Below, in pieces: positions 1,750 through 24,483 of a stretch of 32,526 nucleotides of DNA. A model generated the notes under the pieces. It did no database searches. It was not told where the DNA came from and worked only from the letters and a program-made list of their open reading frames with translations. A program made the translations under genes and the position numbers. The stretch's first letter is position 1. Each line of letters starts with the position of its first letter. The stretch is from the NCBI GenBank assembly GCA_003990765.1, contig RBNJ01000342.1, positions 1-32,526 of the forward strand, in the 5' to 3' direction. Source of the DNA: Jimgerdemannia flammicorona (lineage: Eukaryota).

Positions 1750-3749
1750 TTATTTAATATTTAGGATGAAGCAGTATATGAGCAAATTGATTATATACTA
1801 GATGAGAATTATAACAGTATATCTTCACTATTATGATAATTGTACCCTTTAAGTTAATAATACTTAATATTAATAACTTAAAGGCACTTATATCAGATGT
1901 CTGTAGTTTGAGGAAGCAGCTATCTTAATGCCTAAATACTGTCTGTTGTACTTCTAATTAATCTAGTCTCCTTCTGGTAGACTTAGATAACAATTTGGTA
2001 ATTACAGACTTTAATTCTTTAAAGTCTAAGTCTTTTAGTATATCCTTCTTAGATATAGTCTAGTTCTGAGAATTATATTTAGATTCTTCAGAGTTCAAAT
2101 ATTTATAGAGTTCAGGATATCTATTTTTAGATGTGGTCTTTTTTAGTTTAAGTTATTCAGAGACTTATCTATATATTATAAACTTTAAGTCTTAATTGTT
2201 CTCTTTTTGATATTGTATAAATTCTGTCTTTTATTAAGTCACTTGCTTGAGGGTATTTATACATTTTTAAGGACTTTACATTTTGACTGACTATTGGCTA
2301 AAAGATATAAGACAGAAAGTTGCTAAGAGTGATGTAAAAGTTACACTATAATGATATCATTATGAAGTCATAATGATACTATTTAATAATATCATTTTTA
2401 TATACTATTTATGAAGTAATGTTCTGGATTTCAACTAAGACTTTGTGATGTAGTGTTTCATTATATCATATAGTAGTAATAAACTTCTGTATAAAGGGTT
2501 AGGGGTCTTTTATCTGATTTTATTTCAGATGAGAAAGAGATTAGCTCTTCTGAGCTAACTTCTGATCTTATAGTCTCAGATAATATAGTAGACTAGTCAG
2601 GAATTAGTCTGACATTTGAGGGGACAGGAAAGCCATGTGGCCAGATACTGATAGGGATGGAGACTTGTATAATTGGTCCTTGAAAGAGACCAATGATAGA
2701 GTTGAATATCTTATTCTCATATAGCCAAGTATTATCATTATAATGATCTTGAAGATTAAAGTCATTTATAAGATCTAACTCTACTTGTGTTATGTGGATG
2801 TCATTGAGGCTACCAATTTCAATAGAGACTATTCCTTATATACTACTAATGACAAAGGGTATTTTTCTGAACAATTGGTAGATATAGAGTAAAATATGCT
2901 GTCTAAATATAAAGACATTGTATTTGTCCAGGATTTCTGAAGTATTTATATTATTTCTGACAATGAGTCTGCCTGTCTGGTAGTTTCTCAATGTCATGAA
3001 GTATCTGGTGACCTGTTGCATTCTTAATACAACTTTATCAGTAGCTTATAGATACTGCTCAAGGTTATAGATATCTATATCAACATATTCTTAAGAGAAC
3101 TGATGTTGATGGTCAAAGACAGTATTCCAGAGTACTTGATAGATATATTCAGAGAGTGTAGGCATAATTTGTTTATGTCTTAGTTTTGTTTTGGAGGAGG
3201 GGTGTCTGTGTATTTGTGTAGTAATTATTTGGATAATTATTTTCCAAAGCCAATTTGTAGGATATTTATTTATTTACCAAATAAACTATTTTAGTATATG
3301 GCAACCATGATTTCATAGCTTATCATGGTCTAGTTTAGCCCATGAAGTCACTGGTCTTAAAGATCTTACTAACTTCTGACATCAGAGGACTGATAATATC
3401 AGTGGCTAATTTTGATATACTCTAGTTTCTATGATATCATAGACTATTTTAGATTATGACATCAATGTGGCTAAAGACTAATTTAGTCTCATATTATTTT
3501 TAGCATTCTTAGTCTATTTCTGAGGCATATCCTTAGTAATGTTAGTGTGAGTGTACACTAAACTAGTACAGAGACTAGTGTGACTACTATGATGTTACTG
3601 GCTAAAGAGGGCTGAAATTAGTGCAAAATCATTATGATCTCACTAATATTCATGTATTTTCTAGCATATAACCTTGCTAGTGACATGAATCTGATGATAT
3701 CAGCTTAGTGATGTCATCATTTGTGACATTATAATGTATTTTCATTATA
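1750..3749 (-). mobile_element. Degenerate ~2 kb 3' LTR of element C (left boundary approximate)
   Basis: On the minus strand, AAGGACATTAAATCTTAAAGAAGAGATAA|TATAATG at 3778-3743 parallels the A/B 3' end GAGGACGTCGAAAGCTAAGAAGGGGAGAGT|TGTAAG. A TATA context GTATAAATACCCTC at 2254-2261 matches the A/B LTR TATA and lies a similar ~500 nt from the LTR end. Confidence 0.6.
2461..3165 (-). pseudogene. Degenerate ORF within the U3 of element C's LTR
   Basis: ATG at 3165 follows a CA-rich leader and reads MPTLSEYIYQVLWNTVFDHQHQFS*EYVDIDIYNLEQYL*ATDKVVLR, in frame with ORF-track 2836..3021. The stops are explicable as CAA>TAA. After a probable frameshift it continues ...FQGPIIQVSIPISIWPHGFPVPSNV... 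to about 2461. Confidence 0.5.
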
Positions 3750-3763
3750 TTATCTCTTCTTTA
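3750..3763 (-). other. Polypurine tract of element C (decayed)
   Basis: Minus-strand AAAGAAGAGATAA immediately before the decayed LTR start TATAATG (ancestral TGTAACG inferred). Confidence 0.55.
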
Positions 3764-4049
3764 AGATTTAATGTCCTTATTAAATAGTTCTATAGGACTT
3801 TTTTCAATATCTCTATTTATTGGTCTAGTTTGAAAAATTTTTCTGATCCCATAACCTCTGGCAGGAGATTGAAAAGTGGTATTTATGGGCTGGTATCTTC
3901 TTTTATATAAAGTAAGGGTCTAATTTTGATCTTGACCAATCAGTTGATAGTTCAAACTCCTCTAGCTTCAAAAGTCTTATGGATGAATAGTTGCTAGTAC
4001 TATATCTCTTAGAGAATGGTCCAGACAGATTGTCTGCTGATTATGGGAC

Positions 4050-4900
4050 ATGCTGTTATGATTTATAGACTAAAACCTTATGGGTGGTTGTTATGTTTTA
4101 CTTCTCCTATATAGCTTCTTAAGTCTGTTTTTATATACTATAGTAGGCAGTATAGTCTCTGAGAGTTTTCTAAGCCAAAGAGTAGTTTTCTTAATATGTA
4201 TCTTATATGTAGAAGAGTCTTTTCTATTTGGGCTTCTAGTTTTTATAACTATGAGGCTTCTATTATATCTCAATATAGTAGAATCTTTTTGATGGGTTCT
4301 AGAGTCTTGTAATTCTTTTCTACATTCTTTCTTGTTAGTGCTTGTGACTTGATAATATAATCTTCTATCTTCTTCTTGATTTGATATAGTTTCCAGATTT
4401 TTGAGTTAATCTATCACTAAGTTAGATCTAGATTTGTGACTGAGATTCTACATATCAGAATCTTCTTCTCCAAAGAGTAGTTCTCTTGGAGAAAGTGTGT
4501 ACTCTGTGATCATATATCTTATTTAGATATAGTGTTATTATACTATTTGAATGATCATAAGTCTGAGGACTTTTGTTTCTTTCAAAAAGTAGTATGCTTA
4601 TAGTACAGTTGCCTAATATATTAAATTCATATGTTAAAGGGTTATATATTCAATACTATATACCAGAAGTGATTCTGGTATCAATTATTGCTAGAGAATT
4701 TTCTGTAAAGAAATCTTCTTAAATATCTATATCTCATTTTCTACCAGTAGTACATATGAGGAGAATAGGCTAACTTTCAGTTTTACTGTTTTTTCCTTAG
4801 AGGGCTTATATTCTTTTATTTTAATCTTATTGTCATTCTCACAGTTAATCCTTTTTAGGATTACTAGTTTTAGCTTGTAAAAATTTTCTTGTGATCTTTT
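4050..4900 (-). pseudogene. Possible decayed accessory ORF between pol and the 3' LTR of element C
   Basis: 4540-4805 is clearly homologous to A 26442-26708. The minus-strand translation gives protein-like blocks (YYW*KMRYRYLRRFL..., DTRITSGI*Y*IYNPLT). Frame and limits are uncertain. Confidence 0.35.
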
Positions 4901-5099
4901 CCTGTATTTACTTGTTTTATTCTAGCAATTAGTACCTTATAGTATAGTAGATAGTAGGTTAATCTTGGGACTATGAGTTAGAGGTTCAACTTCCCCAAAT
5001 TTGGGATATTATATATATTATTTAGCCTATATTACCTAGACCTATTATATCCATTTATTCTTTTTAGACTAGGAGATATGAGTGATATGTCAGTGAGAT

Positions 5100-8000
5100 T
5101 ACAGTTTTCTTTCTTATTATACTAAATATTCTAAGATCTTTTCTTTAGCATTAGTGAGGTTTCTTTCTGATTCCCAAGTAGAGTCATATAAAGGGTAGCC
5201 TTCCCATTTTACTAAATATTCTAAAGAGGTTCCTTAACTCTTTTTTATAACTTAGTAGTCTAAAATTTATTCTACAATATATTCTGTCCTTCAATTATTA
5301 TGGGTGATAGTGGGAGTATTTCCTGATTAGAAATTTGATTTGGAGTATACTGCTTAAGTAGTGAGATATGAAATATATTATATATCTTCATATCTTGAGG
5401 GAGTTCTAATTGATATGATACATTAGATATTATTTCTTTAACTGGGTAGAGTCTAATATATTTTGGGCATAGACTTTGTTTAGAGTGCTCAGTTTGATTT
5501 GTTACAGTTATACATATTAGAGGCTTCTAAGAGAACTAAGTCTCCTACTTTGAAGAGGACCTCTCTTCTATATTGGTTGGCATATTTGACTTATTACTCC
5601 TGAGCCTTTTGTAATTCTTTTTGGACTAACTGTATAATATTTTCAATAGTTACTATAAGATCTTCTGCTGTAGGTATTATAGATTTTTCTATAGTTGCCA
5701 GAGTTTATAGGTATTAACTAGAATTTATAAAGAAGAGTGTCATTTGGGTAGATGACTATTTGGCATTATTATAGGCAAATTCTGCCAATGGGAGATATTG
5801 GTCCCAGTTATCTTATTTGTAACTATAGAATATTCTCAACATTTGTTTAAGAGTTCTGTTAGTTCTTTCTATCTGATCATCAGTTTGTGGATGGTAGGCA
5901 GTATAGAATAATAACTTAGTATTTATTATTCCAAAGAATGCTTTCCAGAAAGTACTTATAAACTTGGAATCTCTATCTGAGATTATTACTGAGGATAGTC
6001 CATGCAGTTTAAAAACTATATGTAAGAAAATATTTGCTGTTTCTGGAGCAGTAACTGTGATAGTAGTAGGTTCAAAATATGCTTATTTGCTGAGCCTATC
6101 TCTGAACACTACTATAGCATCCTTTTCTTGGTTGGTTTTGGGTAGTTTTACTATAAAGTCTAAGACAATCTGGTTCCAATTTCTAGTAGATATTGGTAGA
6201 GGTTGAAGAAGTTCTAAAGATACTTGATTTCTTGTCTTTTCTTTAATATAGATCATAGGAATAACAGAAGTCCTTGATATCATCTGTTATTCTTGACTAG
6301 TAAAAGTTCTGAGTTATATTAGCAAGAGTTTTTTTTATAATCATAATATCCTGCAAAAGGTATATCATAGTATTCTTGTATAATTTGAAGTCTCAGTTTT
6401 TGGTTTTTAGGAATTAAGACTCTTATTTCATTATAGTATAATAACTCTTCTTTGAGGGTTAATTTTTTGGTCAATTCTTTGAGTTTTGAGTCATTGATTG
6501 GGTTTTGTAAGAATTTACAAATTTCTTAGTGAGTAAGATTATAGGCTTCTCTGATCTGATTCTTGAGATCATTGGTTATAATTATAATAGCTGCTATTTA
6601 CTCTGTTTGTTCTATTCTTGAGAGAGCATCAGCTACTATATTTGTTTTTCCAGAGTGATATTCTACTGTAAAGTCATAATCTGCTAGAGCTTCTATCCAT
6701 CTTGCTTATCTTTTAGTCAAAGTAGGTTGATAGTGAATATAGACAAGAGATTGATAATCTGTAATGATAGGAAAATGTTTTCCTATCAGAAAGTATCTTC
6801 ATTCTTTGAGACTTCTAACTATGGCAAAAAATTCCTTTTCATGAGTAGCATATCTTATTTCTGCTTCTTTTAACTTTTGAGAAAAGTAAGCTACTAGGTG
6901 TTTCTCTTGAGTAAGGACTGCTCTAATTGCTATATCTGATGCATCAGTAGTAACTTCAAAGAAGCCTTTTAGATTAGAGATCACCAATACTAGTATATTA
7001 GTGAGAAGTCTTTTTAGATAATTGATAGCTTGTATTTAGATAGAAGTCCAATGTTTTTTAATATCTATAGGTTTTTGAGTGAGTGCTGTTAGAGGAACTG
7101 CTACTCTAGAGAATCCTTCTATAAATTATCTAATCCTTATAATTCTTTAAGATTTTCTGGTTGGGGCCAGTCTTCTACAGCTTTAATCAATCTGGGTGAA
7201 GTTTTAACTATTTCTTTTCCAACAATATGTCCAAGGTATTCTACTTCTTCTTGCAAGAAGTAATATTTTTCAAGCTTTAAATATAACTGATTTTTTCTGA
7301 ATATAGTGAAGACTTCTCTTAGATATTGAAGGTGCTCTTTTTGAGTTATACTATAGATGAGAATATCATCTATATAAACTAGTACACACTTGTATAATAG
7401 AGGCTTAAAGATGTCATTCATGAAGGTCTGAAATGTTGCTGGAGTATTAGTTAATCCAAAGGGCATAACTTTGAATTGATAATGTTCATATCTTATTTTG
7501 AAGACTATTTTCTCTATATCTCTTTCATCTATTCCTATGTGTCAAAATTCTTCTTTAAGATCACCTAAGATTATAACCTTAGCTTTATAAAGCTGAGTGA
7601 GTAGTTCTTTTATATATACTAGGTAGAAGATATTGGTTTTGTATAGTGATCTTGTTAAGTAGATAGTAGTCTATATATATTCTTAATGTTCTATCCTTCT
7701 TTTTTACAAATAGAATGGGTGCTCCATAAGAAGATACACTTGGTTCAATATATTCTTTATCAAGAAGTGTCTTTAGAGTTTCTCTTAAGGCTTCTAGCTC
7801 TGGCTGAGACATAGGATAGATAGGTCTATGAAGAGATGATGATCTTAAAATTATATCAATCTTATGATTGACTTTTCTTTTAGGTAGAGGCTTTGTTGGT
7901 TCTTGAAATATATCAGAGAATTCTTTTATAAGAGGCTGAATTATTTGTGGGATTTGAATAGCTTTCTTTTCTTTTAGAACTATCTATATTAAGCAGAGGT

Positions 8001-8101
8001 AATAATCTTCTATTCTTTTGACTTCTTTATAGAATTGAATAGCTGAGATTATTTCTACTTATACTGACTTTAGATTTAAAGTAAGCTTTTGACCCTGTTT
8101 C
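5100..8101 (-). pseudogene. pol: Element C pol, 3' part: RT, RNase H, integrase, chromodomain (heavily decayed)
   Basis: Motifs are [29 protein letters not shown] and VYIDDILIYS (YIDD at 7365-7376), RNase H TTDASDIAI..AYFSQKL, integrase WNQIVLDFIVKLP and YHPQTDDQIER, and chromodomain-like LEYLVKWEGYPLYDSTWE (about 5170-5225). Confidence 0.93.
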
Positions 8102-8182
8102 TGTAAGTGCACAACCTCCAAGCCACTGAAATCACACATGACCTCCAAACAAATCTGGAAATCACCTGCTCAATCACAAAGC

Positions 8183-8288
8183 TGAGTCAAACCGAAGTCA
8201 CAGTGTACAAAGCTGAGTCAATATGAAGTCACAGAACACAAGATTCACACAAACAGAATCTTACCAATCAGGACCAAATACATATATA
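8183..8288 (+). promoter_or_regulatory. Upstream LTR promoter module: two TGAGTCA (AP-1/Gcn4-type) sites, CCAAT, TATATA
   Basis: TGAGTCA at 8183-8189 and 8214-8220, CCAATCA at 8264-8270 and TATATA at 8283-8288, about 70 nt upstream of the U3 ORF ATG. Recognisable in all five LTR copies. Confidence 0.55.
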
Positions 8289-8357
8289 CTGAGCACTAAG
8301 ATGCATCAAATCAGAGAACCAAAATAAACAACAACCATAACTTCCAAACATATAAAC

Positions 8358-9447
8358 ATGACCACCAAGATCTATATCCATATCTGTGCTGATATTTGGA
8401 ATACCATTATCAACCGAGCCACACCCCCTCTGCCCCTCATGAATATCCATAGCCTAGCACCCCTCTACTTCGTGGAAGCCCAATGGAATGCTCTGAATAT
8501 ACTTAGCAAGGCCCACCAAATCGGACAAATCTCAAGCTACTACCAGATTGGTCACCTCCTGAAAGATATGATTGAATACCACTATGATACAGACATTACT
8601 CAGATATCTCAACACCAGAAGCCACAAACATCGAGAACTCTTCTATGAGTATAGTACCATTATTTCCTGCCTCTGAGTTACCACAGCTAAAATGGTTGCT
8701 ACTCTGTCCTATGGCCAAATCGATGACATGATATAAGAACTCAACCACAAGTACCTTGAGTATGTCAAAACCACAGACAGAATCTTCTCACACCCCAATG
8801 ATCATATCCTGCAAATGCCCCAAGTTGGATATGCCATGAAGGATATCTATGATATAATCCACTTCGATGAAGATAAAGCAGAAGACAATGATCCCTCTGA
8901 TACCAATATGACCCCAAGCCAAGGATCCCTGCCAACATTAATTATACCACCAACCTTGCTGATGAACTTACAACAATTTATAACCACATATAAGACTTAT
9001 TGGGACAATGACCACTGGTATGAATACCAATCTGCATTCACCCTCAATTACTTCAACTACAATGAAGAGACTGGAGAACACAACCTATACCTCCAGACAA
9101 CCCTTGAGATTGAACCAACCACTCCACCACCTGAGTACGAGTGATATAAATCACAGCCACCAGCTTACTATAACCCCGCAACTCATAGTGCTGTAACCTA
9201 TAGAAGGTATGCAGACAGCGAATCCGATGAAAGTGAAGATGATGTACCCCTCCTCTGCCCACCAACACCTTATTCAGCATATGAGACAGACAATGCTATT
9301 CTGTGGGATGGTGACAAAGTTCCAATATATTATTACCTCAGTGAACAAGGAGAAGTAATCTGCAAACCACTCTTCCTAGATAACTACTTCATCAGAGATG
9401 ATGCAATCAATGGTAATATCATCAAAGACTATCCAGACAGTGCCTAA
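8358..9447 (+). pseudogene. LTR-encoded U3 protein, A 5' LTR copy (8-nt deletion frameshift, premature stops)
   Basis: ORF-track pieces 8358..8648 and 8815..9144 join into one ancestral frame ending ...IIKDYPDSA* (TAA 9445-9447). Length is 1090 nt versus 1098 nt in the 3' LTR. Confidence 0.8.
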
Positions 9448-9508
9448 ACCTATATAGCCTAGCAGTTATAGTATAGTTAGATTAGCCTTATATGATGTGA
9501 CTGTAAAC

Positions 9509-9642
9509 TGACTCAGCAGTCAGATGATCTCTTGACATATCAGATCACACTTATACTATATGACTACATTCCGACTCAGCAAGGCACTTAGTGCTACATC
9601 CATATCTAGCATAGTCCAGATAGTCCCTCACTAGTATAAATA
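9509..9642 (+). promoter_or_regulatory. Downstream LTR promoter module (probable genomic RNA promoter): TGACTCA and TATAAATA
   Basis: TGACTCA at 9509-9515 and TATAAATA at 9635-9642. The TATA is conserved at 16732-16739(-), 24954-24961(-), 28309-28316(+) and, in element C, 2254-2261(-). Confidence 0.65.
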
Positions 9643-10133
9643 CCCCCTCCCCCAAACCTCAGAATCTCAGACTGGAATACTTGAACAATCCGAACACAAC
9701 TTCTGAGCACTTCTCCACAATATCCCTTCACACAACTACTTCTAGTATAGCAATAGTATGAATAGCAAATAAACCTATTTAATAACCCACAAACTACTCT
9801 TAAGTAAATCTGCTCCCCATTAGGTCCCACTCCTAACCCCATCACGAAATTTCCTAATTGGGTATTGTCTGCAGCAATACACCAATTCAACTAAGCTGGT
9901 CTTAGTTTCTTGAACTTCCTGAAATATGGAAAATTCTGAACATCCAGAACTAGTCTAAAAAAGGACTCTGGTTGAGATGTCAACCCAATCTTGAAATCAA
10001 TAAGCATAGAGAATATACTCCATATGAAATTGATCTTGACCATAAGAAAATGGTCTTCCAGAATATTCAGAACTTCCAGAAAACTCTTCTAGAACTATGT
10101 AATAATTACCTAAAAAGCAACCCTCTTATAACT

Positions 10134-10145
10134 TGATAGCAGCAG
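10134..10145 (+). other. Primer binding site of A, probably tRNA-iMet
   Basis: Starts 3 nt after the LTR. A reads TGATAGCAGCAG and B reads TAGTAGCAGTGG, giving consensus TGGTAGCAGCGG, which resembles the complement of eukaryotic initiator tRNA 3' ends (..GCTACCA). Confidence 0.65.
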
Positions 10146-13100
10146 TTTACAATCCAAATCTGCTTCAAGATGCTTTCTCACTCTGCTACAACCCCTTCTG
10201 AGAATTCCTACAAGTTGGTATCAAGCCCAACCTCTGAACTGGAATTTATCCTGAACCATCTGACAATCTGGAGAGAATTGAACCTGATGTATAAGGACAA
10301 TTTGACCTCTACACCTGCAACAAGTGGGACAAACTTCATTCAAAAAAAGAAGTACTCTGATTAAACCAACAAATAGGCGAAACCCTATTCACTGAACTCC
10401 TTACACTACACCCAGCAAGTTAAGATGAAGAAGGTCTTATTGAAGCCTTCTTTACTCTCCTCAATAAGAGTTTTGTCAGCTCCACAAATCTGAGTAACCT
10501 AGGACAACCAGTAGCAGTCTTTCTAGCCTTAGTTCCTCATGAAGCTCAAGCCTCTGTAGCCAAGTGGCTCAACTCTACCGACTTTCACCATACTAGGACC
10601 AAGACCATGTTATACTATCGATTCCAGAACAGCAAGGCCCACCATATTCTTAAAGAAGAAGCAAGGGAAACCCTTTATCAACTACCTGACCCTGAACCTG
10701 AAGTAGGCCCTGCTACAGCCCTACCTGAATCTGAAACCAATACCAAACCTGAACTTGACTTTGAATTAAGTTTATCTGAAATCAGATATACAACTGATTC
10801 TGTCTACTTCGATGCCAAGCAAACCCAATTACATGAGAACCAAACTGAAGAGGAGGAGGAGTATCTCAGTAAATTCGATCCCAGATATACCACCAAAGGA
10901 GAAGTACCTCCATGAGGACAGAATACACCTACATAGCAACAAATAGTTATCTATTAAGCCCTCACTCCAGACCCACAACTACTACTCCAGCAACTTACAC
11001 AGACCCAAAGAACCCCATCACACTCTGCACCAGTACCTCAAGTAGTACCAGTAACACCACTACCAGCAGTTCAATCACCTCTAGTAAACAATATGGCAAA
11101 TCAACAGATTCTAGACCTCACAGCCCAGGTAGCCATAATGGCAGCAACCATTACTGCCTTAGCTGAACAGACCTGACCTACTAAAAATCTGAGCCTATCT
11201 ACCTTCAATGGTACTGCACAAGAAGTCCAAAGCTTCATTAGTGTAGTTGACACCAACTTTGAAGCCAATCAATGGACCAATGAGTGAGTTGCTGACCATG
11301 TTCTGACAAATAATCAAGACCACACTCTGAAACAACTCTTTGCTACCACTACAGCATATGTCCGCCAAGTTGTTACATTCTTCTGAGGACCTGCTAAAGA
11401 ATGGTGGTGAACCCTTCCTGAAAAACCCCTCACATGAAATACCTGACCTGCAGTAGTTGCTCAGAATGCAGCAAACAATGCCCCAGGATACGGAGCCCAT
11501 CCTGCAGCCCCTGGACTCAAACAACTCATGATTGCCAAATCTTGAGTAAAACTCTATAACCTCAAATTTGATATATATAGCAAAGAAGAATTTGAAACCT
11601 TCTGTACAAAACTTGAGTCACTCCTGAACACTGTTGGCCTAGGATATATTACTAATGATGAAGCATGAAATGGTACAAGAGCAGACCATTTATTCGATGC
11701 ACTGCCTGGATGGCTTACTTGAAAAATCTGAGAACAAGGCCACCCAGTTGGTTGTGACCACCAACAATAGTGCCTAGCCAGAATCAAGACCATGGTCAAG
11801 CGAATCCTAACAGCTGGACCAATGCTGCCCCAAAGACAATTCAACAACAAGGAAAAGACTTAGACCAAGAAAGAAGAACTAAAGCATGAAGCATCTCGAG
11901 CTCCCTCTACATCCACCTCTTGGATACCCAGAAATCATAAATCCACCCAGTCAAGTACCTTCAAGAAACTCACCAAAGGCAAAAGAAATAAACTTCGAAG
12001 AAGTGGAGCATGCTTCTATTGCCGAAAGACAGGACACATAGCCAGTGTCTGGCCTAACTGGAAACCCCGAACAGCAACACAAGCAACTGTTACCACTCTG
12101 CACCACCTTAACAACCTAACTACCAGAACACTAGACTTTGTCAAGTTAAGACAAACTGCCAAGACCCCAACTAAAGGAAGTCAAAAAGCAGCTGGATATG
12201 ATCTGTATGTAGCCGAAAAGCTATAGTTTCCAACTGAGAAGTCAAACAAGTCTATATAGGAATCAGCATCCAAATCTCTGAAGGACATGTTGGAAGAATA
12301 TGCTGTCACAGCAGCCTAGTATTGAATGGACTCTCAGTAGAAGGAGGAGTTATTGATGAAGATTACACAGGTGAAATCATTGTCCTCATTCGAAACCACA
12401 GTTGGACACCCTTCAAGATCTCTATAGGTTTCTATATTGCCCAGATTCTATTCGAAAAAATTGAGTCAACCCTGACAGTCAAGGAAGTCCCTGAACTACT
12501 GCCCACCATCCAAGAATCCAAAGAATTTGGCTCATCAAACAAGGTGCCAGCCCAACCTACCATGAGCAAAGAAGAACAATTCTATAAGAAGATTGAGGAC
12601 GGATATATACCAAGTGGCCGATGCCCTCATGGCATTGAAATGTACTCTTTCTGAATGATTGATGATTGCTTCTCTTGTGTCAATGAACTGGCTCAAAGAA
12701 GAACTAACAGAAGGAAAGCTCTTACAACTGAAATCACCACCATTGGTTCAGACAAACTGCTTACACTCAAAGCTTTTGTCAACTGAGCACCTGTTAAGAT
12801 TATAATAGACAGTGGTGCCTCAGGCAACTTTATCAATGAAGAGACAGCCAATAGACTCAAGGTCTTCACCTCTCCAGTACAACAAACTCAAGCAGTTGCC
12901 ATAACTGATGGAATCTCATATGTCATCAGCAAGGAAGTTCACAATCTACCCTTCTGAATTGGTGACTATCAAGTACATATTACCCTCCAAATCATACCAC
13001 TTTCTGACAATGAAATCATCCTTGGGACTCTATGGTTAAAACAAGAGAACCCTATGATCAATTGGGTAAACTATTCTCTGACCATCAAGAAAGGATGCCA

Positions 13101-16100
13101 CAACTTCAAACTGCAAGACAAAAAGGACCCACTTAATTCTAGTGACCCTGGACCAAAGATCACCTACATCAACAAGCTACAACTTAAGAAATTGGCCAAG
13201 AAATGCCCTCTCTTCACCATCTCCATTCATCCATCCAAAGAAGAACCCAAGAACTCTGAAGAAGATTTTTCCAAAGTTGACAGCCATGTCAGACTACTAC
13301 TCCAGAAATTTCGAGACATATTTCCAAAGAAGCTTCCAAAAGGCCTACCTCCTAAATGAGCAGTAGACCATACCATCAAGACTATCCCAGATGCCAAACC
13401 AGCCTTCAAGTCAATCTACCACATGTCTCCAAGAGAAATCGATGTACTTAAGAAAGAAATTGATAAACTCCTAGAACAAGGATTCATCAGACTCAATGTA
13501 TCACCTTATGGTGCACTAGTCCTATTTGTTGTCAAGAAAGGAGGAGACCTGCAAATGTGCATTGACTACTGTGATCTCAATGAATAGACCATCAAGAACT
13601 GTTGCCCACTACCAAGGATCGATGAAATATTCGATAGGCTCACCAATCCACAATTCATGAGCTCTCTTGATCTGTAAAATGGTTACTGGCAAATTGCTAT
13701 GAAAGAAGAAGACATCTACAAGACAGCTTTCTGAACTCGCTATGGACACTTCAAGTTCCTGATTATACCCTTTAGCTTAACTAATATTCCTGCAACCTTC
13801 CACACCCTGATGAATACTATTCTGCACCCATACCTGGACAAATTCGTTGTTGTCTATATTGATGATATTCTAGTCTTCAGCAAAACCCTGGAGAAACATC
13901 TTGAATACCTTGAACTAGTACTACTGAAACTCCAAGAAAACTGACTCTTTATAAAACTTAGCAAGTATGAATTTCTCCTAAAAGAAATTCAATTCCTTGG
14001 ATACATTGTCACTCCAAATAGAATCAAAGTGGACCCCAGCAAAATCTCTGCAATCAAGGATTGGCCCAGACTTAAGAAGCTGAAAGACCTCCAGTCATTC
14101 CTGGGATTAGCAAACTATTACAGGTGATTTGTTGCCAACTTTGCTAAAATCGCTACTGCCCTCACCCAAATGACCAAGCATAGCAAGAAACAAGAACAAC
14201 CCTAGACCATGAAACAAGAGAAAGACTTCAACAATCTTGTAACTTGGGGATCTGAACAAGATACTGCCTTTCAAGTACTGAAAGATGCCCTGATAACCAC
14301 TCTAGTACTTCAAGCAGCAAATCCTGCTCTACCATATGAAGTTACTACTAATGCCTCTGACCTAGTCCTTGGAGCAGTACTTATGCAAGAAGGACACCCT
14401 GTGGCCTATCACTCCCACAAGTTCAATAATGCTGAAATCAACTATGCAACTCATGAAAAAGAAATGTTAGCCATCATAGACACTTTGATCAAATGGCAAC
14501 CATACCTAGAAGGAGCACACTTCACCATATTGACTGACCACAAATCATTAGTCAATATCAAGACACAGGCTACCCTTTCTCAAAAGCAAGCCAGATGGAT
14601 AAAAGTCCTTACTAACTTTGACTATGAAATCCAGTATCACCCTGGCAAGGAGAATATTATTGCCAATGCAATCTCCAGACCACTTATTGAAGAAGTTATC
14701 CAAACTCTCACTTTGGTTACCAATACTATCATGGAGCAAATTATTACAGCATGTGCCGATGATAAGAAAGCTCAAACACTGCAAGAAATCCTGAACAGTG
14801 ATGATGCTGACAAGCATATACAGTATCACTAATACCAACTAAAGGACAATGCTATCTACTACAAGGACAGACTGTATGTCCCAAATAACTAAGACCTCTG
14901 AAGGACTATCCTATTCAAATGTCATGATGCACCTACAGCTAGACATTTAGGATTTGACAAATGCTATGAAATTATCTCTCGAAACTTCTATTGGCCCCAC
15001 ATGGTAGATCAGCTCAAAACCTACATCACTTCCTATAATGCCTGCCAATGGAACAAGTCCTCAATACTAGCAAAACCTGGTCTACTCCACCCTATCCCAG
15101 TACCATCTGCTAATTGGGAACAAATCTCTATGGACTTCATTGTATAACTACTCTGAACCAAGAATGGGAAAGATGCAATTGTTGTCTTTGTGGACTATCT
15201 TAGCAAACAAGCTCACTTTGTACCTACTACCACTACTGCAACAGCACCAGACATAGCTACACTCTTATTTGACAGCATCTTCTGCTATCATGGTCTTCCT
15301 AAGATCATTGTTAGTGACCAAGACCCAAAATTCACTAGCCATTTTTGGAAAGCCCTCTATGCATATCTTGGAACAAAACTTGCACTATCCACAGCCTTTC
15401 ACCCTGAAACTGATGGTCAAACTGAAAGAATGAACCGAACTCTGGAACAAATACTAAGGAACTATGTTTCCTACAGACAAGATGATTGGCATGAATACCT
15501 GACTGCAGTCGAGTTTGCTTATAATAACAGCAAGTAAGTCTCTCTTGGAATGACTCCATTCTTTGCCAATACTGGACAAAACCCAAACACCCCTTTAACA
15601 CTTATCCAAACCACCAAAGAACCCTCTACAGTCAAAGCTATTGAAGAATTCTTACTCTGAATGTGCAATCTAAGCCAGATTGCTATTGAGAATTTATCAC
15701 GAGCTCAAGAACAACAGTCACAGTATGTTAACCAACACCATCGAGAAGAAATCTTCAATATTGAAGAAAAAGTTCTACTAAACATCTGAGGATACCAAGA
15801 TGTCAACCTCAAGTACAGACCATCTACAAAGCTGAACAGTAAGTTCATTGGACCATTTGAAGTCATCCCACAAGTCTCTCCAACCTCCTACAAATTGGCA
15901 CTACCAGACACTATTAAGATTCATCTAGTCTTTAATATTCAATGTCTCAAGCAATACAATGAGAATGATGATGAGCTATTTCCAAACCAGACCACCAAAC
16001 CACCTGCACCTGTCATTATTAATGACCAAAAAGAGTATGAAGTTGAACAAATTCTCAACAAATGTGGCAATAAGAGCCACCCTGAGTATCTTGTCAAATA

Positions 16101-16197
16101 GAAAGGTTACCTGATCCATGATGCAATCTGGGAACTCAAGACTAATCTCCAGAATACTACTGACTTGGTTCAGGAATATGATTCTTTGAACAACTAA
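10146..16197 (+). pseudogene. gag-pol: Element A gag-pol polyprotein: Gag, CCHC knuckle, dUTPase, PR, RT, RNase H, integrase, chromodomain
   Basis: CFYCRKTGHIASV(W) at 12011-12052, dUTPase at about 12130-12535, IDSGASGNFI at about 12805, YIDDI at 13855-13869, RNase H TNASDLVLGAVL, integrase HPETDGQTERMN, GPF at about 15850, and chromodomain EYEVEQILNK...YLVK*KGY, ending TAA 16195-16197. Many CGA>TGA and CAA>TAA stops. Confidence 0.96.
12130..12535 (+). pseudogene. dut: dUTPase domain of element A
   Basis: Trimeric dUTPase motifs AAGYDLY, GRICC(R)SSL, GGVIDEDYTGEI and IAQI, plus C-terminal motif V (RGSKGFGSS in B). Confidence 0.93.
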
Positions 16198-16298
16198 AAC
16201 CAAATACTCTGTACCTATCTGTACATGCTATATATTATCCTCCTGAACACTATAACTATCAAATCAAGAACTTAGCAAAATAAGATAAGAATACCAAC

Positions 16299-18212
16299 TG
16301 TAAGAGGGTTGCTTTTTAGGGTAACCATTACATAGTTCTGGAAAGGGTTTCTGGATATTCTGGAAGATTGTCCTCTATGCTTATTGATTTCAAGATCAGG
16401 TTGATGTCTCAACCAAAGTCCTTTTTTGGACTAGTTCTGGATATTCAGGATTTTCCATATTTCAGGAAGTTCAAGAAACTAAGACCAGCTTAGTTGAATT
16501 GGCATATCGCTGCAGACAATACCCAATTAGGAAATTTTGTGAGGGGGTTAGGAGTGGGACCTAATGGGGAGTGGATTTACTTAAGAGTGGTTTGTGGGTT
16601 ATTAAATAGATTTATTCGCTATTCATGATATTGCTATACTAGGGGTAGTTGTGTAAAGGGATATTGTGGGGAAGTATTCAGGAATGTTCTTGTGTATTCG
16701 AGTCTGAGATTCTGAGATCTGGGGGAGTGGGTATTTATACTAGTGAGGGGCTATTTGGATTATGCTAAATATGGATATAGCACTAAGTGCCTTGCTGAGT
16801 TGGAATGCAGTCACATAGTATAAGTGTGATCTGACATGTCAAGAGATCATCTAACTGCTGAGTCAGTTCACAGTCATATCGTACAAGGCTAATCTAACTA
16901 TACTATGACTGCTAGGCTATTTATGGGTTTAGGTGCTGTCTGGATAGTCCTTGATGACATCACCATCAATTGTATCATCTCTGATGAAGTAGTCATCTAG
17001 GAAGAGTGGTTCGCAGATTACTTCTCCTTGTTTGCTGAGGTAATAATACATTGGAACTTCATCTCCATCCTACAGGATAGCATTGTCTGTCTCATATGCA
17101 GGATAAGGTATTGGTGGATGAAGAAGGGGTGTATCATTTTCACTTTCATTGGATTCGCTGTCTGCATACCTCCTGTAAGTTACAGCACTATGAGTTGCAG
17201 AATTGTAGTAAGCTGACGGCTGTGGTTCATGTTGCTCATACTCAGGTAGTGGAGTGGTTGGTTTGGTCTCGAGAGTTGTCTGGAGGTACAGGTTGTGTTC
17301 TCCGGTCTCTTTATTATAGTTGAAATAATTGGGGGTGAACGTGGGTTAGTATTCATGCCAGTGGTCATTGTCCCAATAAGTCTTGTAGGCTGTTATGAAT
17401 TATTGTAAGTTCATTGGCAAGGTTGGCAGTGTGACCAGGGTTGGCAGAGATCCTTGGCTAGAGGTCATGTCGGCATCAGAGAGATCATTGTCTTCTGCTT
17501 CATCTTCATCAAAGTGGATTATATCATAGATATCTTTTATGGCATATCCAACTTGGGGCATTTGCAGGATATGGTTGTTGGGGTGTGGAAAGGTTCTGTC
17601 TGTAGTTTTGACGTACTCGAGGTACTTGTGGTTGAATTCTTGATATTTGTGGGTGATGAGCTTCTGGTATTGAGACATCTCAGTAATGTCTGTATCATGG
17701 TGGTATTTGACCATATCTTCCAGGAGGCGGCCGATCTGGTAGTAGCTTGAGATTTGTCCGATTTGGTGGGCCTCACTAAGCATGTTCAGAGCATTCCAAT
17801 GGGCTTCTATGAAGTGGAGGGATGCTAGACTATGGATATTCATGAGGGGCAGAGAGGGTATAGCTCGGTTAACAATGGCATTTCAAATGTCAGCGCAGAT
17901 GTGGGTATAGATCTCAGTGGTCATGTTTGTGTGTTAGAAGTTGTGGTTGTTGTTTTGTTTTAGTTCTCTGATTTGATACATCTTGGTGCTCGGTATATAT
18001 GCATTTGATCCTAATTGGTAAGATTCTGTTTGTGTAGATCTTGTGTTCTGTGACTTTGTATTAACTCAGCTTTGTGTGCTATGACTTTGGTTTGACTCAG
18101 CTTCATGATCGAGCAGGTGATTTCCAGATTTGTTCAGAGGTCGTGTGTGATTTCAGTGGCTTGTTTGGAGGGTGACATGTAATTTCGATGGCTTAGAGGT
18201 TGTGCGCTTACA
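16299..18212 (-). repeat. 3' LTR of element B (1914 bp)
   Basis: Direct repeat of 24484-26436, preceded on the minus strand by the PPT. It has a private deletion of about 37-39 bp near 16368. Confidence 0.96.
16929..17924 (-). pseudogene. LTR-encoded U3 protein, B 3' LTR copy (331 codons, no frameshift)
   Basis: ATG at 17924 to TAA at 16929-16931 is 996 nt, equal to the A copy (1098 nt) minus an in-frame 102-nt deletion. Includes ORF-track 17400..17843. Confidence 0.8.
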
Positions 18213-18230
18213 ACTCTCCCCTTCTTAGCT
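18213..18230 (-). other. Polypurine tract of B
   Basis: Minus-strand AGCTAAGAAGGGGAGAGT directly before the LTR TGTAAG. Confidence 0.9.
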
Positions 18231-18416
18231 TTCGACGTCCTCATCGGGGCCTTCTAATTTTGTTCAGTGGTACAGGAAAAATAGGCTTGCTTTCTGTTTT
18301 ACCATTTTTTCCAGAGGGTCAGTATTCTTGTCTTGTTTTGCTGAGTTCTTGGTTTAGTCTCCAATAATTATAATGTTTGGAAGGATAATATATGAGTAGG
18401 TGCAGAGTATTTGGTT

Positions 18417-21400
18417 CTAGTTGTTTAAGGAATCATATTCCTGAACTAGGTCAGTAGCATTCTGGAGATTGGTCTTGGGTTCCCAGATTGCATTGTGGAT
18501 CAGATAACCTTTCCAATTGACAAGGTACTCAGGGTGGCTCTTGTTGCCACATTTGTTGAGGATTTGTTCAACTTTGTATTCTTCTTGGTCATTAATAATG
18601 ACAGGTGTAGGTGGTTTGGTGGTTCGGTTTGGGAATAGCTCATCATCATTCTCATTGTATTGCTTGAGATATTGAACATTAAAGACTGGGTGAATCTTAA
18701 TAGTGTCTGGTAGTGCCAATTTGTAAGAGGTTGGAGAAACTTGTGCAATGACTTCAAATGGTCCAATGAACTTGCTGTTCAGCTTTGTAGATGGTCTATG
18801 CTTGAGATTGTCAACTCGGTATCCTCTAATATCTAGTAGAACCTTTTCTCCAATATCAAAGGTTTCTTCTCGGTGGTGTTGATTAACATACTGTAACTGT
18901 TGTTCTTGGGCCTGTGATAAATTCTCAATTGCGATCTGGCTTAGATTACGCATTCGGAGTAAGAATTCTTCAATAGCTTCAACTGTGAAGAGTTCTTCAG
19001 TAGTTCAGATAAGTGTCAAAGGGGTGTTTGGGTTTTGTCCAGTATTGGCAAAGAATGGGATCATTCCAAGAGAGGCTTACTTGCTATTGTTATAGGTAAA
19101 CTCAACTGTGGTGAGGTGTTCATGCCAGTCATCTTGTCTGTAGGAAATATAGTTTCTTAGCATTTGTTCCAGAGTTCGGTTCATTCTTTCAGTTTGGCCA
19201 TCAGTTTCTGGGTGAAAGACTGTGGATAGTGCAAGTTTTATTCCAAGGTGTGCATGGAGGGCTTTCCAAAAGTGGCTGGTGAATTTCAGATCCTGATCAC
19301 TAATGATGATCTTTGGAAGACCATGGTAGTGGAAGATATTGTCAAACAAGAGTATGGCTATATCTGGTGCTATTGCAGTAGTGGTAGTAGGCACAAAGTG
19401 GGCTTGTTTGCTGAGATAGTCTATGAAGACAACAATTGCATCTTTTCCATTCTTGGTTCAGGGTAGTTGTACAATGAAGTCCATAGAGATTTGTTCCCAA
19501 TTTGTGGATGGTACTGGGATAGGGTGTAGTAAGCCAGGTTTTACTAGTGTTGAGGACTTGTTTCATTAGCAGGTATCATAGGAAGTGATGTAGGTTTTAA
19601 GCTAATCTGCCATATGGGGCCAATAGAAGTTTTGGAAGATAACTTTGTAACATTTATCAAATCCTAAATGTTCAGCTGTAGGGGCATCATGACATTCAAA
19701 TAGGATAGTCCTTCAGAGGTCTTGGTTGTTTGAGATATACAGTCTGTCTTTGTAGTAGATAGCATTGTCCTTGAGTTGATATTGATTGTACTGGGTATAT
19801 TTGTCAGTATCATCACTGTTTAGGATTTGGCAGAGTGCTTGAGCTTCTTTATCATCAGCACACGCTGTGATAATTTATTCCATGATGGAGTTTGTAACTA
19901 AGGTGAGAGTTTGGATAACTTCTTCGATGGGTGGTCTGGAGATTGCATCGACAACAATGTTTTCTTTGCCCGGGCGATATTGGATTTCATAGTCAAAGTT
20001 GGTGAGGACTTTCATCCATCTGGCTTGCTTTCGAGAAAGGGTAGCCTGAGTCTTGATGTTGACTAATGACTTGTGGTCAGTCAATACAGTAAAGTGTACT
20101 CCTTCTAGATATGGTTGCCATTTGATCAGAGTGTCTATGATGACTAACATTTCCTTCTCATGAGTTGTATAGTTGATTTCGGCATCATTGAACTTGTGGG
20201 AGTGATAGGCCACAGGGTGTCCTTCTTGCATGAGTACTGCTCTGAGAGCTAGGTCAGAGCATTGGTGGTAACTTCATATGGTAGGGCAGGATTTGCCACT
20301 TGAAGTACTGGGGTAGTTATCAAGGCATCTTTCAGTGCTTAAAAGACTGTATCTTGTTCAGGTCCCCAAGTTACAAGGTTGTTGAAGTCTTTCTCTTGTT
20401 TCATGGTCCAGGGTTGTTCTTATTTCTTATTGTACTTGGTCATTTGGGTGAGAGCGGTAGCGATTTTGGCAAAGTTGGCAACAAATCGCCTATAATAGTT
20501 TGCTAATCCCAGGAATGACTAGAGGTCTTTCAGCTTCTTGGATCTGGGCCAATCCTTGATTGCGGAGATTTTGCTGGAGTCCACTTTGATTCCATTTGGA
20601 GTGACAATATGTCCAAGAAATTGAATTTCTTTCAGGAGAAATTTGCACTTACTGAGTTTTGTAAAGAGTCAGTTTTCTCGGAGTTTCAGTAGTACTAGTT
20701 CAAGGTGTTCAAGATGTTTCTCCAGGGTTTTGCTGAAGACTAGGATGTCGTCAATGTAGACAACAACAAATTTGTCTAGGTATGGATGCAGAATGGTATT
20801 CGTCAGTGTCTGGAAGGTTGCTGGAGCATTAGTTAAGCCAAAGGGCATAACCAGGAACTCAAAGTGTCCATAGCGAGTTCAGAAGGCTGTCTTGTAGATG
20901 TCTTCTTCTTTCATAGCAATTTGCCAGTAACCATTTCACAGGTCAAAGGAGCTCATGAATTGTGGGTTGGTAAGTCTATCGAATATCTCATCGATCCTTG
21001 GTAGTGGGCAACAGTTCTTGATGGTCTGTTCATTGAGGTCACAGTAGTCAATGCACATTCGCAGATCTCCTCCTTTCTTGACAACAAATAGGACTGGTGC
21101 ACCATAAGGTGATACACTGGGTCTGATGAATCCTTGCTCTAGGAGTTTATCAATTTCTTTCTTGAGTACATCAATTTCTCTTGGGGATATGTGGTAGATT
21201 GACTTGAAGGCTGGTTTGGCATCTGGGATAGTCTTGATGATATGGTCTACTGCTCATTTAGGAGGTAGGCCTTTCGGGAGTTTCTTTGGGAATATGTCTC
21301 GAAATTTCTGAAGTAGTGGTCTGACATGGCTGTCAACTTTGGAAAAATCTTCTTCAGAGTTCTCAGGTTCTCCTTTGGATGGGCAGATGGAAATGGCAAA

Positions 21401-24400
21401 GAAAGGGCATTTCTTGGCCAATTTCTTGAGTTGTAGCTTGTTGATGTGGGTGATCTTTGGTCTAGGGTCACTAGAGTTGAGTGGGTCCTTTTTGCCTTGT
21501 AGTTTGAAGTTGTGGTGTCCTTTCCTGATGGTCAGAGAATAGTTTACCCAATCGATCATGGGGTTCTCTTGTTTTAACCATAGAGTCCCAAGGATGATTT
21601 CATTGTCAGGAAGTAGTACAATTTGGAGGGTAATATATACTTGGTAGTTGCCAATTCGGAGGGGTAGATTGCGGACTTCTTTGCTGATAATATGTGAGGT
21701 TCCATCAGCTGTAGCAACTGCTTGAGTTTGATGTACTGGAGAGGTAAAGATCTTGAGTCTGTTGGCTGTCTCTTCATTGATGAAGTTGCCTGAAGCACCA
21801 CTGTCTATCATAATCTTAACAGGTGCTCAGTTGATAAAAGCCTTAAGTGTGAGCAGTTTGTCTGATCCAATGGTGATAATTTCGGTTGTAGGGGCTCTCC
21901 TTCTGTTGTTTCTTCTCTGAGCCAGTTCGTTGATACAAGAGAAGCAATCATCAATCATTTGGGATGAGTACATTCCAATGCTGTGGGGACATCAGCCACT
22001 TGGTATATATCCATCTTCGATTTTCTTGTAGAATTGTTCTTCTTTGTTCATGGTAGGTTGGGCTGGGGTCTTGTTTGATGAGCCAAATCCTTTGGATCCT
22101 CGGATGGTGGGCAGTAGTTCAGGGACTTCCTTGACTGTCAGAGTTGACTCAATTTTCTTGAATAGGATCTGGGCTATGCAGAAACCTATGGAGATCTTAA
22201 ACAGTGTCCAACTATGGTTTTGGATGAGAACAATAATTTCGCCTGTGTAATCCTCATCAATGACTCCTCCTTCTACTGAGAGTCCTTTCAATACTAGGCT
22301 ACTGCAATAGCATATTCTTCCAATATGTCCTTTAGGGATTTGGATGCTGATTCCTGTGTAGATTTTTTTGACTTCTCGGTTGGAAACTATAGCTTCTTCA
22401 GCTGCATACAGGTCATATCCAGCTGCTTTTTGACTTCCTTTAGTTGGGGTCTTAGCAGTTTGTCTTAACTTGACAAAGTCTAGTGTTCTGGTGGTCAGGT
22501 TGTTGAGGTGGTGCAGAGTGGTAATGGTTGCTCTTATTGCTGTTCAGGGTTTTTGGTTAGGGCAGATGCTGGCCATGTGTCCTGTCTTTCGGCAATAGAA
22601 GCATGCTCCGCTTCTTCAAAGTTCTTTCCTTTTACCTTCAGTAAGTTTCTTGAAGATACTTGGCTGGGTAGATTCATGATTTCTGGGTGTCCAAGAGGTG
22701 GATGTGAAGGGAGCTTGGGATGCTTCATGCTTGGGTTCTTCTTTCTTGGTCCAAGTCTTTTCCTTGTTGTTGAATTGTCTTTAGGGCAGAATTGGTCCAG
22801 CTGTTAGAATTCGCTTGACCATAGTCTTGATTTTTACCAGGCACCATTGTTGGTGGTCACAACCAACTGAGCAACCTTGTTCTCAGATTTTTCTAGTAAG
22901 CCATTCAGGCAGGGCATCAAATAAATGGTCTACTCTTGTACCATTTCATGCTTCATCATTGGCAATATATCTTAGGCCAACAGTGTTCAGGAGTGACTTG
23001 AGTTTTGTACAGAAGGTTTCGAATTCTTCTTTGCCATGTACATCAAATTTGAGGCTGCAGAGTTTTACTCGAGATTTGGCAATCATGAGTTATTTGAGTC
23101 CAGGGGCTGCAGGATGGACTCCATATCCTGGGGCATTGTTTGCTGCATTCTGAGCAACTACTGCAGATCGGGTATCCCAAGTGAGGGGTTTTTCAGAAAG
23201 GGTTCACCACCATTCTTTGGCAGGTTCTCGGAAGAATGTAACAACTCAGCAGACATAGGCTGTAGTGATAGCAAAGAGTTGTTCCAGAGTGTGGTCTTGA
23301 TTGTTTGTCAGAACATGATCAGCGACTCGCTCATTGGTCCATTGATTGGCTTTGAAGTTGGTGTCAACTACACTAATGAAGCTTTGGACTTCTTGTGCAG
23401 TACTATTGAAGGTAGGTAGGCTCAGATTTTTTGTAGGTTGGGTCTGTTCAGCTAAGGCAGTAATGGTTGCTGCCATTATAGCTACTTGGGCTGTGAGATC
23501 AAGAATCTGTTGGTTCACCATATTGTTCACTGGAGGCAGTTGGACTGCTGGTAGTGGTGTTACTGGTACTACTTGAGGTACTGGTGCAGAGTGTGATGGG
23601 GTTCTTTGAGTCTGTGTAAGTTGCTGAAGTAGTAGTTGTAGATCTGGAGTAAGGGCTTGATAGATAGCTATTTGTTGTTATGTAGGTGTATTCTGTCCTG
23701 ATGGGAGTGTGTCTCCTTCTGTGGTATATCCAGGATCGAATTCAGTAAGATACTCCTCCTCCTCTTCAGTTTGGTCCCCCTGTAATTGGATTTGCTCGGC
23801 ATCAAAGTAGACAGAATCAGTTGTATATCTGATTTCAGATGAACTTAATTCAAAGTCAAGTTTAGATTCGGTATTGATTTCAGATTCAGGTAGGACTGTA
23901 GTAGGGCCTGCTTCAGGTTCAGGGTCAGGTAGTTGATGAAGGGTTTCTCTTACTTCTTCTTTAAGAATATGGTGGGCCTTACTATTCTGGAATTAGTAGT
24001 ATAATGCAGTCTTGGTCCTGGTATGGTGAAAGTCGGTAGAGTTGAGCCACTTGGCTATAGAGACTTGGGCTTCATGAGGAACTAAGACTAGAAAGACTAC
24101 TGCTGGTTTTCCTAGATTGCTTGGATTTGTGGAGCTGACAAAACTCTTGTTGAGAAGAGTAAAGAAGGCTTCTATAAGACCTTCTTTGTCTTGACTTGCT
24201 GAGTGTAGTATAAGGAGTTTGGTGAATAGGGTTTCACCTATTTGCTAGTTTAACCAGAGTACTTCTTTCTTTGAGTGAAGTTTATCCCACTTGTTGTAGG
24301 TGTGGAGGTCAAATTGTCCTTATATGTCAGGTTCAATTCTCTCCAGATTGTCAGATGGTTCAGGAAAAATTCCAGTTCAGAGGTTGGGCTTTATACCAAC

Positions 24401-24468: not shown

Positions 24469-24480
24469 CCACTGCTACTA
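24469..24480 (-). other. Primer binding site of B
   Basis: TAGTAGCAGTGG, 3 nt after the 5' LTR end at 24484. Confidence 0.65.
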
Positions 24481-24483
24481 AGT

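Follow-up and report, generated by a model that had tools for sequence, protein, structure and literature searches.

The 32,526-nucleotide stretch of the Jimgerdemannia flammicorona genome analysed here (assembly GCA_003990765.1, contig RBNJ01000342.1, positions 1 to 32,526 of the forward strand; hereafter the window) contains three nested long terminal repeat (LTR) retrotransposons. The outermost and oldest of them, element C, probably ends in a ~2.7-kb 3′ LTR (1753-4457, minus strand) whose unique 3′ (U3) region holds the remnant of a genuine 234-codon gene, in a layout like that of the LTRs of the two elements, A and B, nested inside it. Retrotransposons of this group seem to maintain an additional gene within the LTR.

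A decayed gene at the 3′ end of element C

The open reading frame (ORF) in question runs on the minus strand from an ATG at 3165 to position 2464 and is closed by the stop codons TAA and TGA at 2463-2458. It spans 234 codons and is interrupted by four in-frame stops (codons 25, 40, 110, and 191) and by no frameshift, much as an earlier inspection of the letters without database searches (the sequence-only reading) had described it: a decayed frame of about 235 codons opening at 3165 behind a CA-rich leader. Stop counts in sliding windows of 234 codons across the six frames of C place its openness far beyond chance, at a stop density equal to that of the reverse transcriptase (RT). The 14,446 windows hold 18.8 stops on average; those with four or fewer make up 0.29% and all lie within the ORF or within RT/RNase H, while windows with six or fewer are confined to the ORF, pol, the dUTPase, gag, and one plus-strand stretch antisense to gag.

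Among 5.8 billion proteins searched, 169 candidates emerged, of which a single sequence, P0005, matched the C ORF (E 2.6e-82). It is an intact 234-aa protein carried as a JGI "hypothetical protein", and its 90% cluster holds 10 sequences. Aligned pairwise, the two are collinear over their full length, start and end at identical residue positions, and agree at 132 of 234 residues (56%), with 173/234 positives and no gaps (E 2e-96). C>T/G>A changes suffice to derive 47 of the 102 differences from P0005 codons, whereas the reverse direction accounts for 8, a bias that fits C as the decayed copy. Four matches came from an exhaustive HMMER comparison with 1.84 billion representatives; P0006 and P0007 are partial close forms of the family, and P0008 is a diverged C-terminal relative (45%). 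The fourth, P0009 (1237 aa, eight matched stretches), reads as a leucine-rich-repeat protein; its match is regarded as repeat-driven, and it was kept out of the alignment.

Judged by these alignments, the C ORF is the remnant of a genuine gene; its family is a small orphan one, of which intact members exist elsewhere. The ORF itself (P0003) has no Pfam family at E<=1, a PDB search with the C-family profile including P0005 gave just two matches (E 0.23 and 0.34), and an ESM Atlas search with P0005 gave no usable match. Prokaryotic genome contigs scanned with P0005 yielded 44 pattern matches, none of them confirmed, as expected for a eukaryotic element. In a low-confidence model, the protein of the C family is mostly alpha-helical over its first ~160 residues and then passes into an acidic Ser/Thr-rich tail.

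A layout shared with the LTRs of A and B

The three elements form a nest, C[A[B]]. Element A (8102-16298 plus 26437-28804, plus strand) is inserted in C between copies of the 5-bp target-site duplication GTTTC/GTTTC (8097-8101/28805-28809), and element B (16299-26436, minus strand) is inserted in A between CCAAC and CCGAC (16294-16298/26437-26441), one transition apart; each of the two has both its LTRs and its target-site duplication. Because A and B are placed by these duplications, C comprises 1753-8101 plus 28805 to about 31080 on the minus strand, interrupted by A. A repeat map and long-repeat alignment recover a single LTR family of four full copies and one partial copy. The full copies lie at 8102-10130 and 26762-28804 (plus strand, element A) and at 16299-18212 and 24484-26436 (minus strand, element B), and common indels pair 8102 with 26762 and 16299 with 24484; the partial copy, at 1-478 on the minus strand, extends past the window start.

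The A/B LTRs are 1.9-2.04 kb long and carry a U3 ORF of 333-365 codons, which starts 260 nt from the LTR start and lies inside the repeat in every copy (four full LTRs and the partial one). Between the A and B versions (e.g., 27022-28119 and 17924-16920) there is an in-frame indel of 96 nt (32 codons), and the frame is broken in two copies, by a 4-nt insertion (24484-26436) and an 8-nt deletion (8102-10130). The ORF shows purifying selection, because synonymous changes are in excess among the fixed differences between A and B: they number 24, against 23 non-synonymous ones, although only 33% of transitions would be expected to be synonymous (p=0.009), and the control frames give ratios of 15/32 and 9/38. 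None of 428 candidates, drawn from the near-length range, was a homologue at E<=0.01; no Pfam family was recognised, and a PDB sequence search produced no match. The partial LTR at 1-478 is essentially unmutated (GC 0.49; CpG observed/expected ratio, or CpG o/e, 0.73), with the first 63 codons of the ORF intact. Because no polypurine tract (PPT) adjoins it, it represents a young copy, either as the 5′ LTR or as a solo LTR.

The C ORF sits in the same slot as that of A/B, on the sense strand, with the TATA promoter of the element some 200 nt downstream. An exact copy of the 12-mer GTATAAATACCC is present once per full A/B LTR (four LTRs) and a single time in C, in every case in the sense orientation of the element; with at most one mismatch, the window holds 6 occurrences against 0.19 expected, a number reached by 0/100 shuffles. 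In C it appears as GTATAAATACCC(TC) at 2262-2249 (minus strand), the TATA-type core promoter motif GTATAAATACCCTC common to the A/B LTRs. It lies 198 nt past the stop codon in C and 188 nt past it in A/B, and from there to the end of the LTR there are 510 nt in C, counted to the AT/GC junction at 1753, and 497 nt in A/B. Since these last two distances are so close, little of the LTR end seems to be missing in C. The TATA regions of C and A/B align with a score that 2/1000 shuffles reach. The A/B LTRs thus resemble that of C in having a sense ORF behind a CA-rich leader, the 12-mer some 190-200 nt behind the stop codon, and an interval of about 500 nt between TATA and LTR end; they also have a related PPT/LTR-start motif, and the elements have a common backbone of gag, dUTPase, protease (PR), RT, RNase H, integrase, and chromodomain. 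The claim of the sequence-only reading that C carries the motif ~500 nt from its LTR end in the layout of A/B therefore stands, and so does its remark that C has no clear nucleotide similarity to the A/B U3. By blastn (word size 9) and transition-tolerant Smith-Waterman comparison, the stretch from 4516 down to 1753 has no general nucleotide similarity to the A/B LTR. The one significant nucleotide match is an internal block at 4804-4517, and the runners-up outside it score 65 and 64, at noise level.

The leader of the C ORF (3330-3166, minus strand), as read from the sequence, is CA-rich and contains a TATA-like CATATACT about 130 nt upstream of the ATG; it does not significantly resemble the A/B leader (482/1000 and 340/1000 shuffles as good). 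Farther upstream, five TGAYRTCA palindromes fall within 340 nt (3377-3716), 200-550 nt from the ATG. The window contains 12 such palindromes against 3.46 expected, a count reached by 0/100 shuffles, and 6 of the 12 are in the C LTR (2352-3716), including one at 2352-2359. They may be decayed sites of the TGACGTCA (CRE/ATF) type. A 104-codon open frame follows the putative LTR start (4405-4091, minus strand) and stays fairly open to ~3700; it may represent another decayed ORF or have arisen by chance. The frame 4405-3698 found no homologue among 74 candidates, and Pfam gave no match on any of the six frames of 3300-4400.

Relationship between the two U3 genes

It is a serious possibility, though one we stop short of favouring, that the C and A/B ORFs are a single ancestral U3 gene that has diverged past easy recognition, so that they are "different" in appearance only. 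Strand, slot, and downstream TATA are common to both. The motif YQxGRLL stands at residues 61-68 in each, Q[RK][IL][LI]xHxYQ stands at residues 88-97 and 86-95, respectively, and BLASTP aligns P0005 with the B copy over a collinear stretch of 41 residues at E 0.048. In an ungapped test on diagonal 0 restricted to the first 70 residues, 22/5000 shuffles reach the score of the B copy and 58/5000 that of the A copy. The predicted helix layouts over residues 1-107 look alike, a hint only, as both models are of low confidence. Moreover, with pol no more than 38-58% identical, an accessory gene could fall below detection.

These resemblances are countered by more demanding comparisons, in which homology of the two proteins is not demonstrable. 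BLASTP between the copies in the window gives a best E of 0.94. Alignment of the two small full profiles with hhalign gives a probability of 2.3%, and the hhalign score for the first 110 residues is reached by 17/200 column shuffles. Seven Smith-Waterman comparisons are equalled by anything from 15/1000 to 784/1000 shuffles (161/1000, 41/1000, 15/1000, 317/1000, 576/1000, 539/1000, and 784/1000). The 70-residue window of the diagonal test was chosen after the data had been seen, and over 100 residues the same test is matched by 1228/5000 and 1057/5000 shuffles. The ORFs also differ in length (234 vs 333-365 codons), and their C-terminal halves do not align. The sequence-only reading had noted a faintly similar N-terminus: the letters do resemble each other, but not significantly by BLASTP or hhalign, and the profile-profile comparison of the two U3 proteins that it had proposed ended at the 2.3% given above.

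Extent of the C LTR and alternative readings

The start of the C LTR is placed by homology. A candidate PPT of C, GGAGAAGAAGA (4470-4460, minus strand), aligns with the PPT of A and B directly upstream of their LTR start; in a three-way alignment, the C junction GGAGAAGAAGA + TGATATGTAGAATCTCAGTCACAAATC lies over AAGAAGGGGAGAG + TGTAAGTGCACAACCTCCAAGTCACTGAAATC of A, where AAGAAGGGGAGAG is the A/B PPT. The LTR starts themselves are related (TGATATGTAGAATCTC-AGTCAC-AAATC in C, TGTAAGTGCACAACCTCCAAGTCACTGAAATC in A), and AAATCTGGAAA is located 50-62 nt inside the LTR start in C and A alike. The junction score is 58, where shuffles average 34.2 (sd 6.2) and 0/1000 reach it; when C is scanned with the PPT/LTR junction of A, the window at 4470-4490 is the best of 325 (score 58, median 35). 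Against the partial copy at 1-478, which has no adjoining PPT, the C junction window is not significant (826/1000 shuffles as good). Upstream of the PPT lies the internal block at 4804-4517 (minus strand), 288 nt that are 78% identical to A 26441-26721, the segment directly preceding the PPT and 3′ LTR of A. Its Smith-Waterman score in the transition-tolerant comparison is 538, where shuffles average 59.9 and reach at most 75.

From this alignment we infer that the C LTR starts near 4457 and is ~2.7 kb long if it runs to 1753, its end being taken at the junction of AT-rich and GC-rich DNA. The sequence-only reading had proposed a 3′ LTR of about 2 kb at 1750-3749, a start that finds no support: the junction score near 3749 (3766-3650) is 39, at least equalled by 324/1000 shuffles, and homology moves the start to the vicinity of 4457. 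Because the 5′ LTR of C is absent from the window, it is by analogy with A/B that we infer the C ORF to lie inside sequence repeated at both LTRs.

Nowhere else is the nucleotide sequence as well conserved between C and A as in the pre-PPT block (~290 nt). In B (18213-18300), about 225 nt of it are deleted; because the two LTRs of B are nevertheless near-identical, the block seems dispensable for transposition.

Several points weigh against a 3′ LTR at 1753-4457 with the ORF in its U3. The window holds a single C LTR, and neither of its ends is proven. The ATG stands 1292 nt from the putative LTR start, where A/B have 260 nt, which leaves room for an insertion or another boundary. The last 150-250 nt before 1753 are unlike the A/B LTR end (861/1000 and 969/1000 shuffles as good), a TG...CA terminus is not recognisable at the C LTR, and the 1752/1753 junction falls where a flanking inverted duplication ends and could be the breakpoint of a rearrangement. 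Near the putative LTR start there are two unexplained repeats that may be chance, one inverted (14 nt, 4201-4214/4446-4459) and one direct (31 nt, 4162-4192/4457-4487, 81%). Finally, the AlphaFold2 models of the C and A/B ORF families have low confidence (pLDDT 44.6 and 34.0), too low for a fold search.

Some of these points would be accommodated if the C ORF were an internal accessory gene downstream of pol ("ORF3"), with the real LTR short or later-starting and 1753-4457 mostly unique internal or flanking sequence. The region is single-copy in the window, the distance from LTR start to ATG is five times that of A/B, and the capture of ORFs downstream of pol is a known pattern among LTR retrotransposons, as the accessible part of one report indicates (PMC6431247). 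The 14-nt inverted repeat, moreover, bounds a ~257-nt unit (4459->4201) right after the PPT, followed by the repeat of the pre-PPT 31-mer. Yet two-copy short repeats in DNA of 30% GC are often due to chance, and no PPT/LTR junction signal is seen between 4450 and 1853, where the next best, at 2060-2070, scores 49 vs 58. The TATA 12-mer, an LTR-internal motif in A/B, also stands downstream of the ORF at the distance known from A/B. An internal gene of this kind is therefore unlikely, and the U3 placement remains the preferred reading. As a plain observation, the 14-nt inverted and 31-nt direct repeats flank the ~257-nt unit at the putative LTR start.

A host pseudogene, or an insertion unrelated to C and merely adjoining it, is a very improbable reading of 1750-3300: the ORF family has no known domain and the flank at 1752/1753 is rearranged, but strand and decay match those of C (GC 0.300 vs 0.298; CpG o/e 0.00 in each), a TATA of the A/B type comes after the ORF at the interval seen in A/B, the relatives look multi-copy with broken members (10 sequences in the 90% cluster of P0005; partial P0006 and P0007), and neither target-site duplication nor terminal repeats surround the ORF.

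Identity and decay of element C

Element C is an old, transition-decayed, 5′-truncated Ty3/gypsy chromovirus with a dUTPase. The 3′ part of its pol (5125-8101, minus strand) was delineated with Pfam and shows the chromovirus domain order RT, RNase H, integrase: RVT_1 at 7541-7137 (E 7e-24), RT_RNaseH_2 at 7035-6799 (E 2.8e-19), the integrase core together with SH3_Tf2-1 at 6525-5272 (SH3_Tf2-1 E 3.9e-13), and, at the integrase C-terminus (~5280-5125), a chromodomain (Pfam Chromo, E 3.1e-13; 49.8 bits, cut-off 25.1). The 5′ part (28805-31080, minus strand; Pfam and tblastx) comprises a gag remnant, which matches the gag of A by tblastx, and, within 29950->28822, a dUTPase (E 7.7e-6) and a protease (RVP_2, E 9e-4; 19.5 bits, below the cut-off of 20.3). 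The dUTPase (29482-29950) lies upstream of the protease (28822-29346) on the minus strand, giving the order gag, dUTPase, PR, RT. Near 31080 the element is truncated and lacks the gag N-terminus, the primer-binding site, and the 5′ LTR; C LTR sequence was not found in 31000-32526. Since C is cut there and nothing beyond matches its 3′ end, there is a single C LTR in the window.

Pieces of C pol are 38-58% identical to those of A/B at the amino-acid level, and by this comparison C is a related family, but one distinct from A/B. The sequence-only reading had called C older and diverged, and it proves to be both. GC content is 0.30 in C and 0.40 in A/B, and CpG o/e is 0.00 in C, 0.14-0.26 in A/B, and 0.73-0.97 in the GC-rich flanks. 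Along the window, AT-rich stretches (GC 0.29-0.31) at 2001-8000 and 29001-32000 alternate with GC 0.38-0.43 at 8001-28000 and GC-rich ends. Transitions account for 243/248 singleton differences among the A/B LTR copies. A ciliate-type code (TAA/TAG=Q) was considered for the decayed frames and rejected, as under it they are still broken by TGA stops and frameshifts.

Classical repeat-induced point mutation (RIP) of the Neurospora type is recognised by a high TpA/ApT (threshold ~0.89) and a low (CpA+TpG)/(ApC+GpT) (~1.03). In C, these indices are 1.05-1.16 and 1.07-1.11, and its decay looks more like CpG- or methylation-linked C>T loss than like Neurospora-type RIP. Across 1753-8101, 28805-31080, and 31081-32150, CpG o/e is 0.00 throughout and (CpA+TpG)/(ApC+GpT) is 1.07-1.23. 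A report on truffles, in its accessible part, describes methylation-based rather than RIP-based control of chromovirus clades and a methylation-linked CpG decay, which the pattern of C fits as well (PMC12581995).

Flanking sequences and antisense frames

Beyond the 3′ end of C, the block at 479-1752 is GC-rich and undecayed and includes an inverted duplication of 343 bp (916-1258/1410-1752, 95%) with a 151-nt spacer. A Pro/Ala-rich ORF of at least 171 codons, for which Pfam gave no family, begins there at ATG 993 (minus strand), and the inverted copy of its first 25 codons stops exactly at the C junction. At the other end, a decayed Glu/Lys-rich, coiled-coil-like frame extends from the C gag breakpoint over 31085-~32100 (plus strand, antisense to C), with sub-threshold Pfam matches only (TPR_MLP1_2, TSC22), and 32151-32526 is undecayed (CpG o/e 0.97). 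Antisense to C gag, the plus-strand frames of 30204-31085 are unusually open, falling to 5 stops per 234 codons and including stop-free ORFs of 83 and 106 codons.

Comparison with known systems

Protein genes inside LTRs are textbook features of a few complex retroviruses, such as the sag gene of mouse mammary tumour virus (MMTV), and lie outside the usual picture of the LTR retrotransposon; Nef and Bel are further retroviral genes that overlap U3. As generally described, sag is likewise a U3 ORF, so that the genomic RNA carries it at its 3′ end and the DNA form has a copy at either end, and it may be regarded as the closest functional analogue of the genes considered here, without a sequence relationship. 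An ORF in the MMTV 3′ LTR is described in the accessible part of one report (PMC2118998). MMTV has a vertebrate host, however, whereas the elements described here are chromoviruses without env in a host that is not a vertebrate. The C ORF is not in the Sag family: it has no Pfam match at E<=1, and the PDB profile search gave only E 0.23 and 0.34.

Among retrotransposons, Ogre, Athila, and bdelloid elements have captured accessory ORFs downstream of pol, according to the portions available of two reports (PMC6431247; PMC2864245). Like the C ORF, these are on the sense strand and 3′ of pol; as far as those portions go, they stand between pol and the 3′ LTR, whereas the A/B ORF is part of the repeat itself. 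A chromodomain together with a dUTPase is described, in the accessible part of one of these reports, for fungal chromoviruses (PosPlaTy3 families, Tmt1), with a dUTPase position that varies by family (PMC2864245). The position upstream of PR in C is one of several reported there. Compared with A/B, in turn, C has a longer LTR (~2.7 kb) and a much longer interval from LTR start to ATG.

In searches of open-access text, no account came to light of an ORF borne on the LTR of a chromovirus, fungal or otherwise, and the passages cited above on fungal and truffle chromoviruses and on ORF capture (PMC2864245; PMC12581995; PMC6431247) mention none inside an LTR. The papers listed on LTR-borne ORFs concern mostly MMTV, and, as far as their titles and the openings of their abstracts disclose, none places such an ORF inside the LTR of a retrotransposon.

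Possible mechanism and implications

If the U3 reading of C is correct, the whole 1753-4457 stretch would be repeated at both ends of intact C copies, and the gene could be expressed in either of two ways. The ORF might be translated from element RNA in subgenomic or spliced form, or it might have its own promoter in the 5′ U3, for which the CATATA(TA)CT motif and the TGAYRTCA cluster upstream of the ATG would be candidates. Its mRNA would end at the LTR's own poly(A) site. Were the gene driven by a promoter of its own, each LTR, even a solo LTR, would amount to a complete gene in itself. The protein might conceivably be a trans-acting accessory factor that serves the element, for instance by regulating its transcription or the silencing imposed by the host.

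The sequence-only reading went further and saw in the two ORFs a lineage-wide, fast-evolving LTR cargo gene. One part of this claim holds, in that a real ORF stands at the matching slot in C and in A/B; the other is less secure, as a single ancestral, fast-evolving cargo gene is not separable from two independent captures or a replacement. A fuller version of the idea would make U3 a standing accessory-gene slot in this chromovirus lineage, whose sense-strand gene, upstream of the conserved TATA box, evolves or is exchanged so fast that sister families have almost no sequence in common, whose LTRs (including solo LTRs) are autonomous expression units through upstream promoter elements of the gene and the poly(A) site of the LTR, and whose product is a regulator, such as an LTR trans-activator or an antagonist of methylation-based silencing. 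We offer it as a speculation that is rather doubtful in its entirety.

Two related families with a real gene at the matching U3 position, one with intact copies and the other under purifying selection, suggest a conserved accessory function. LTRs and solo LTRs are usually annotated as non-coding, and they may supply many "orphan" gene models; the JGI "hypothetical proteins" of the P0005 family would then be explained as transposon cargo.

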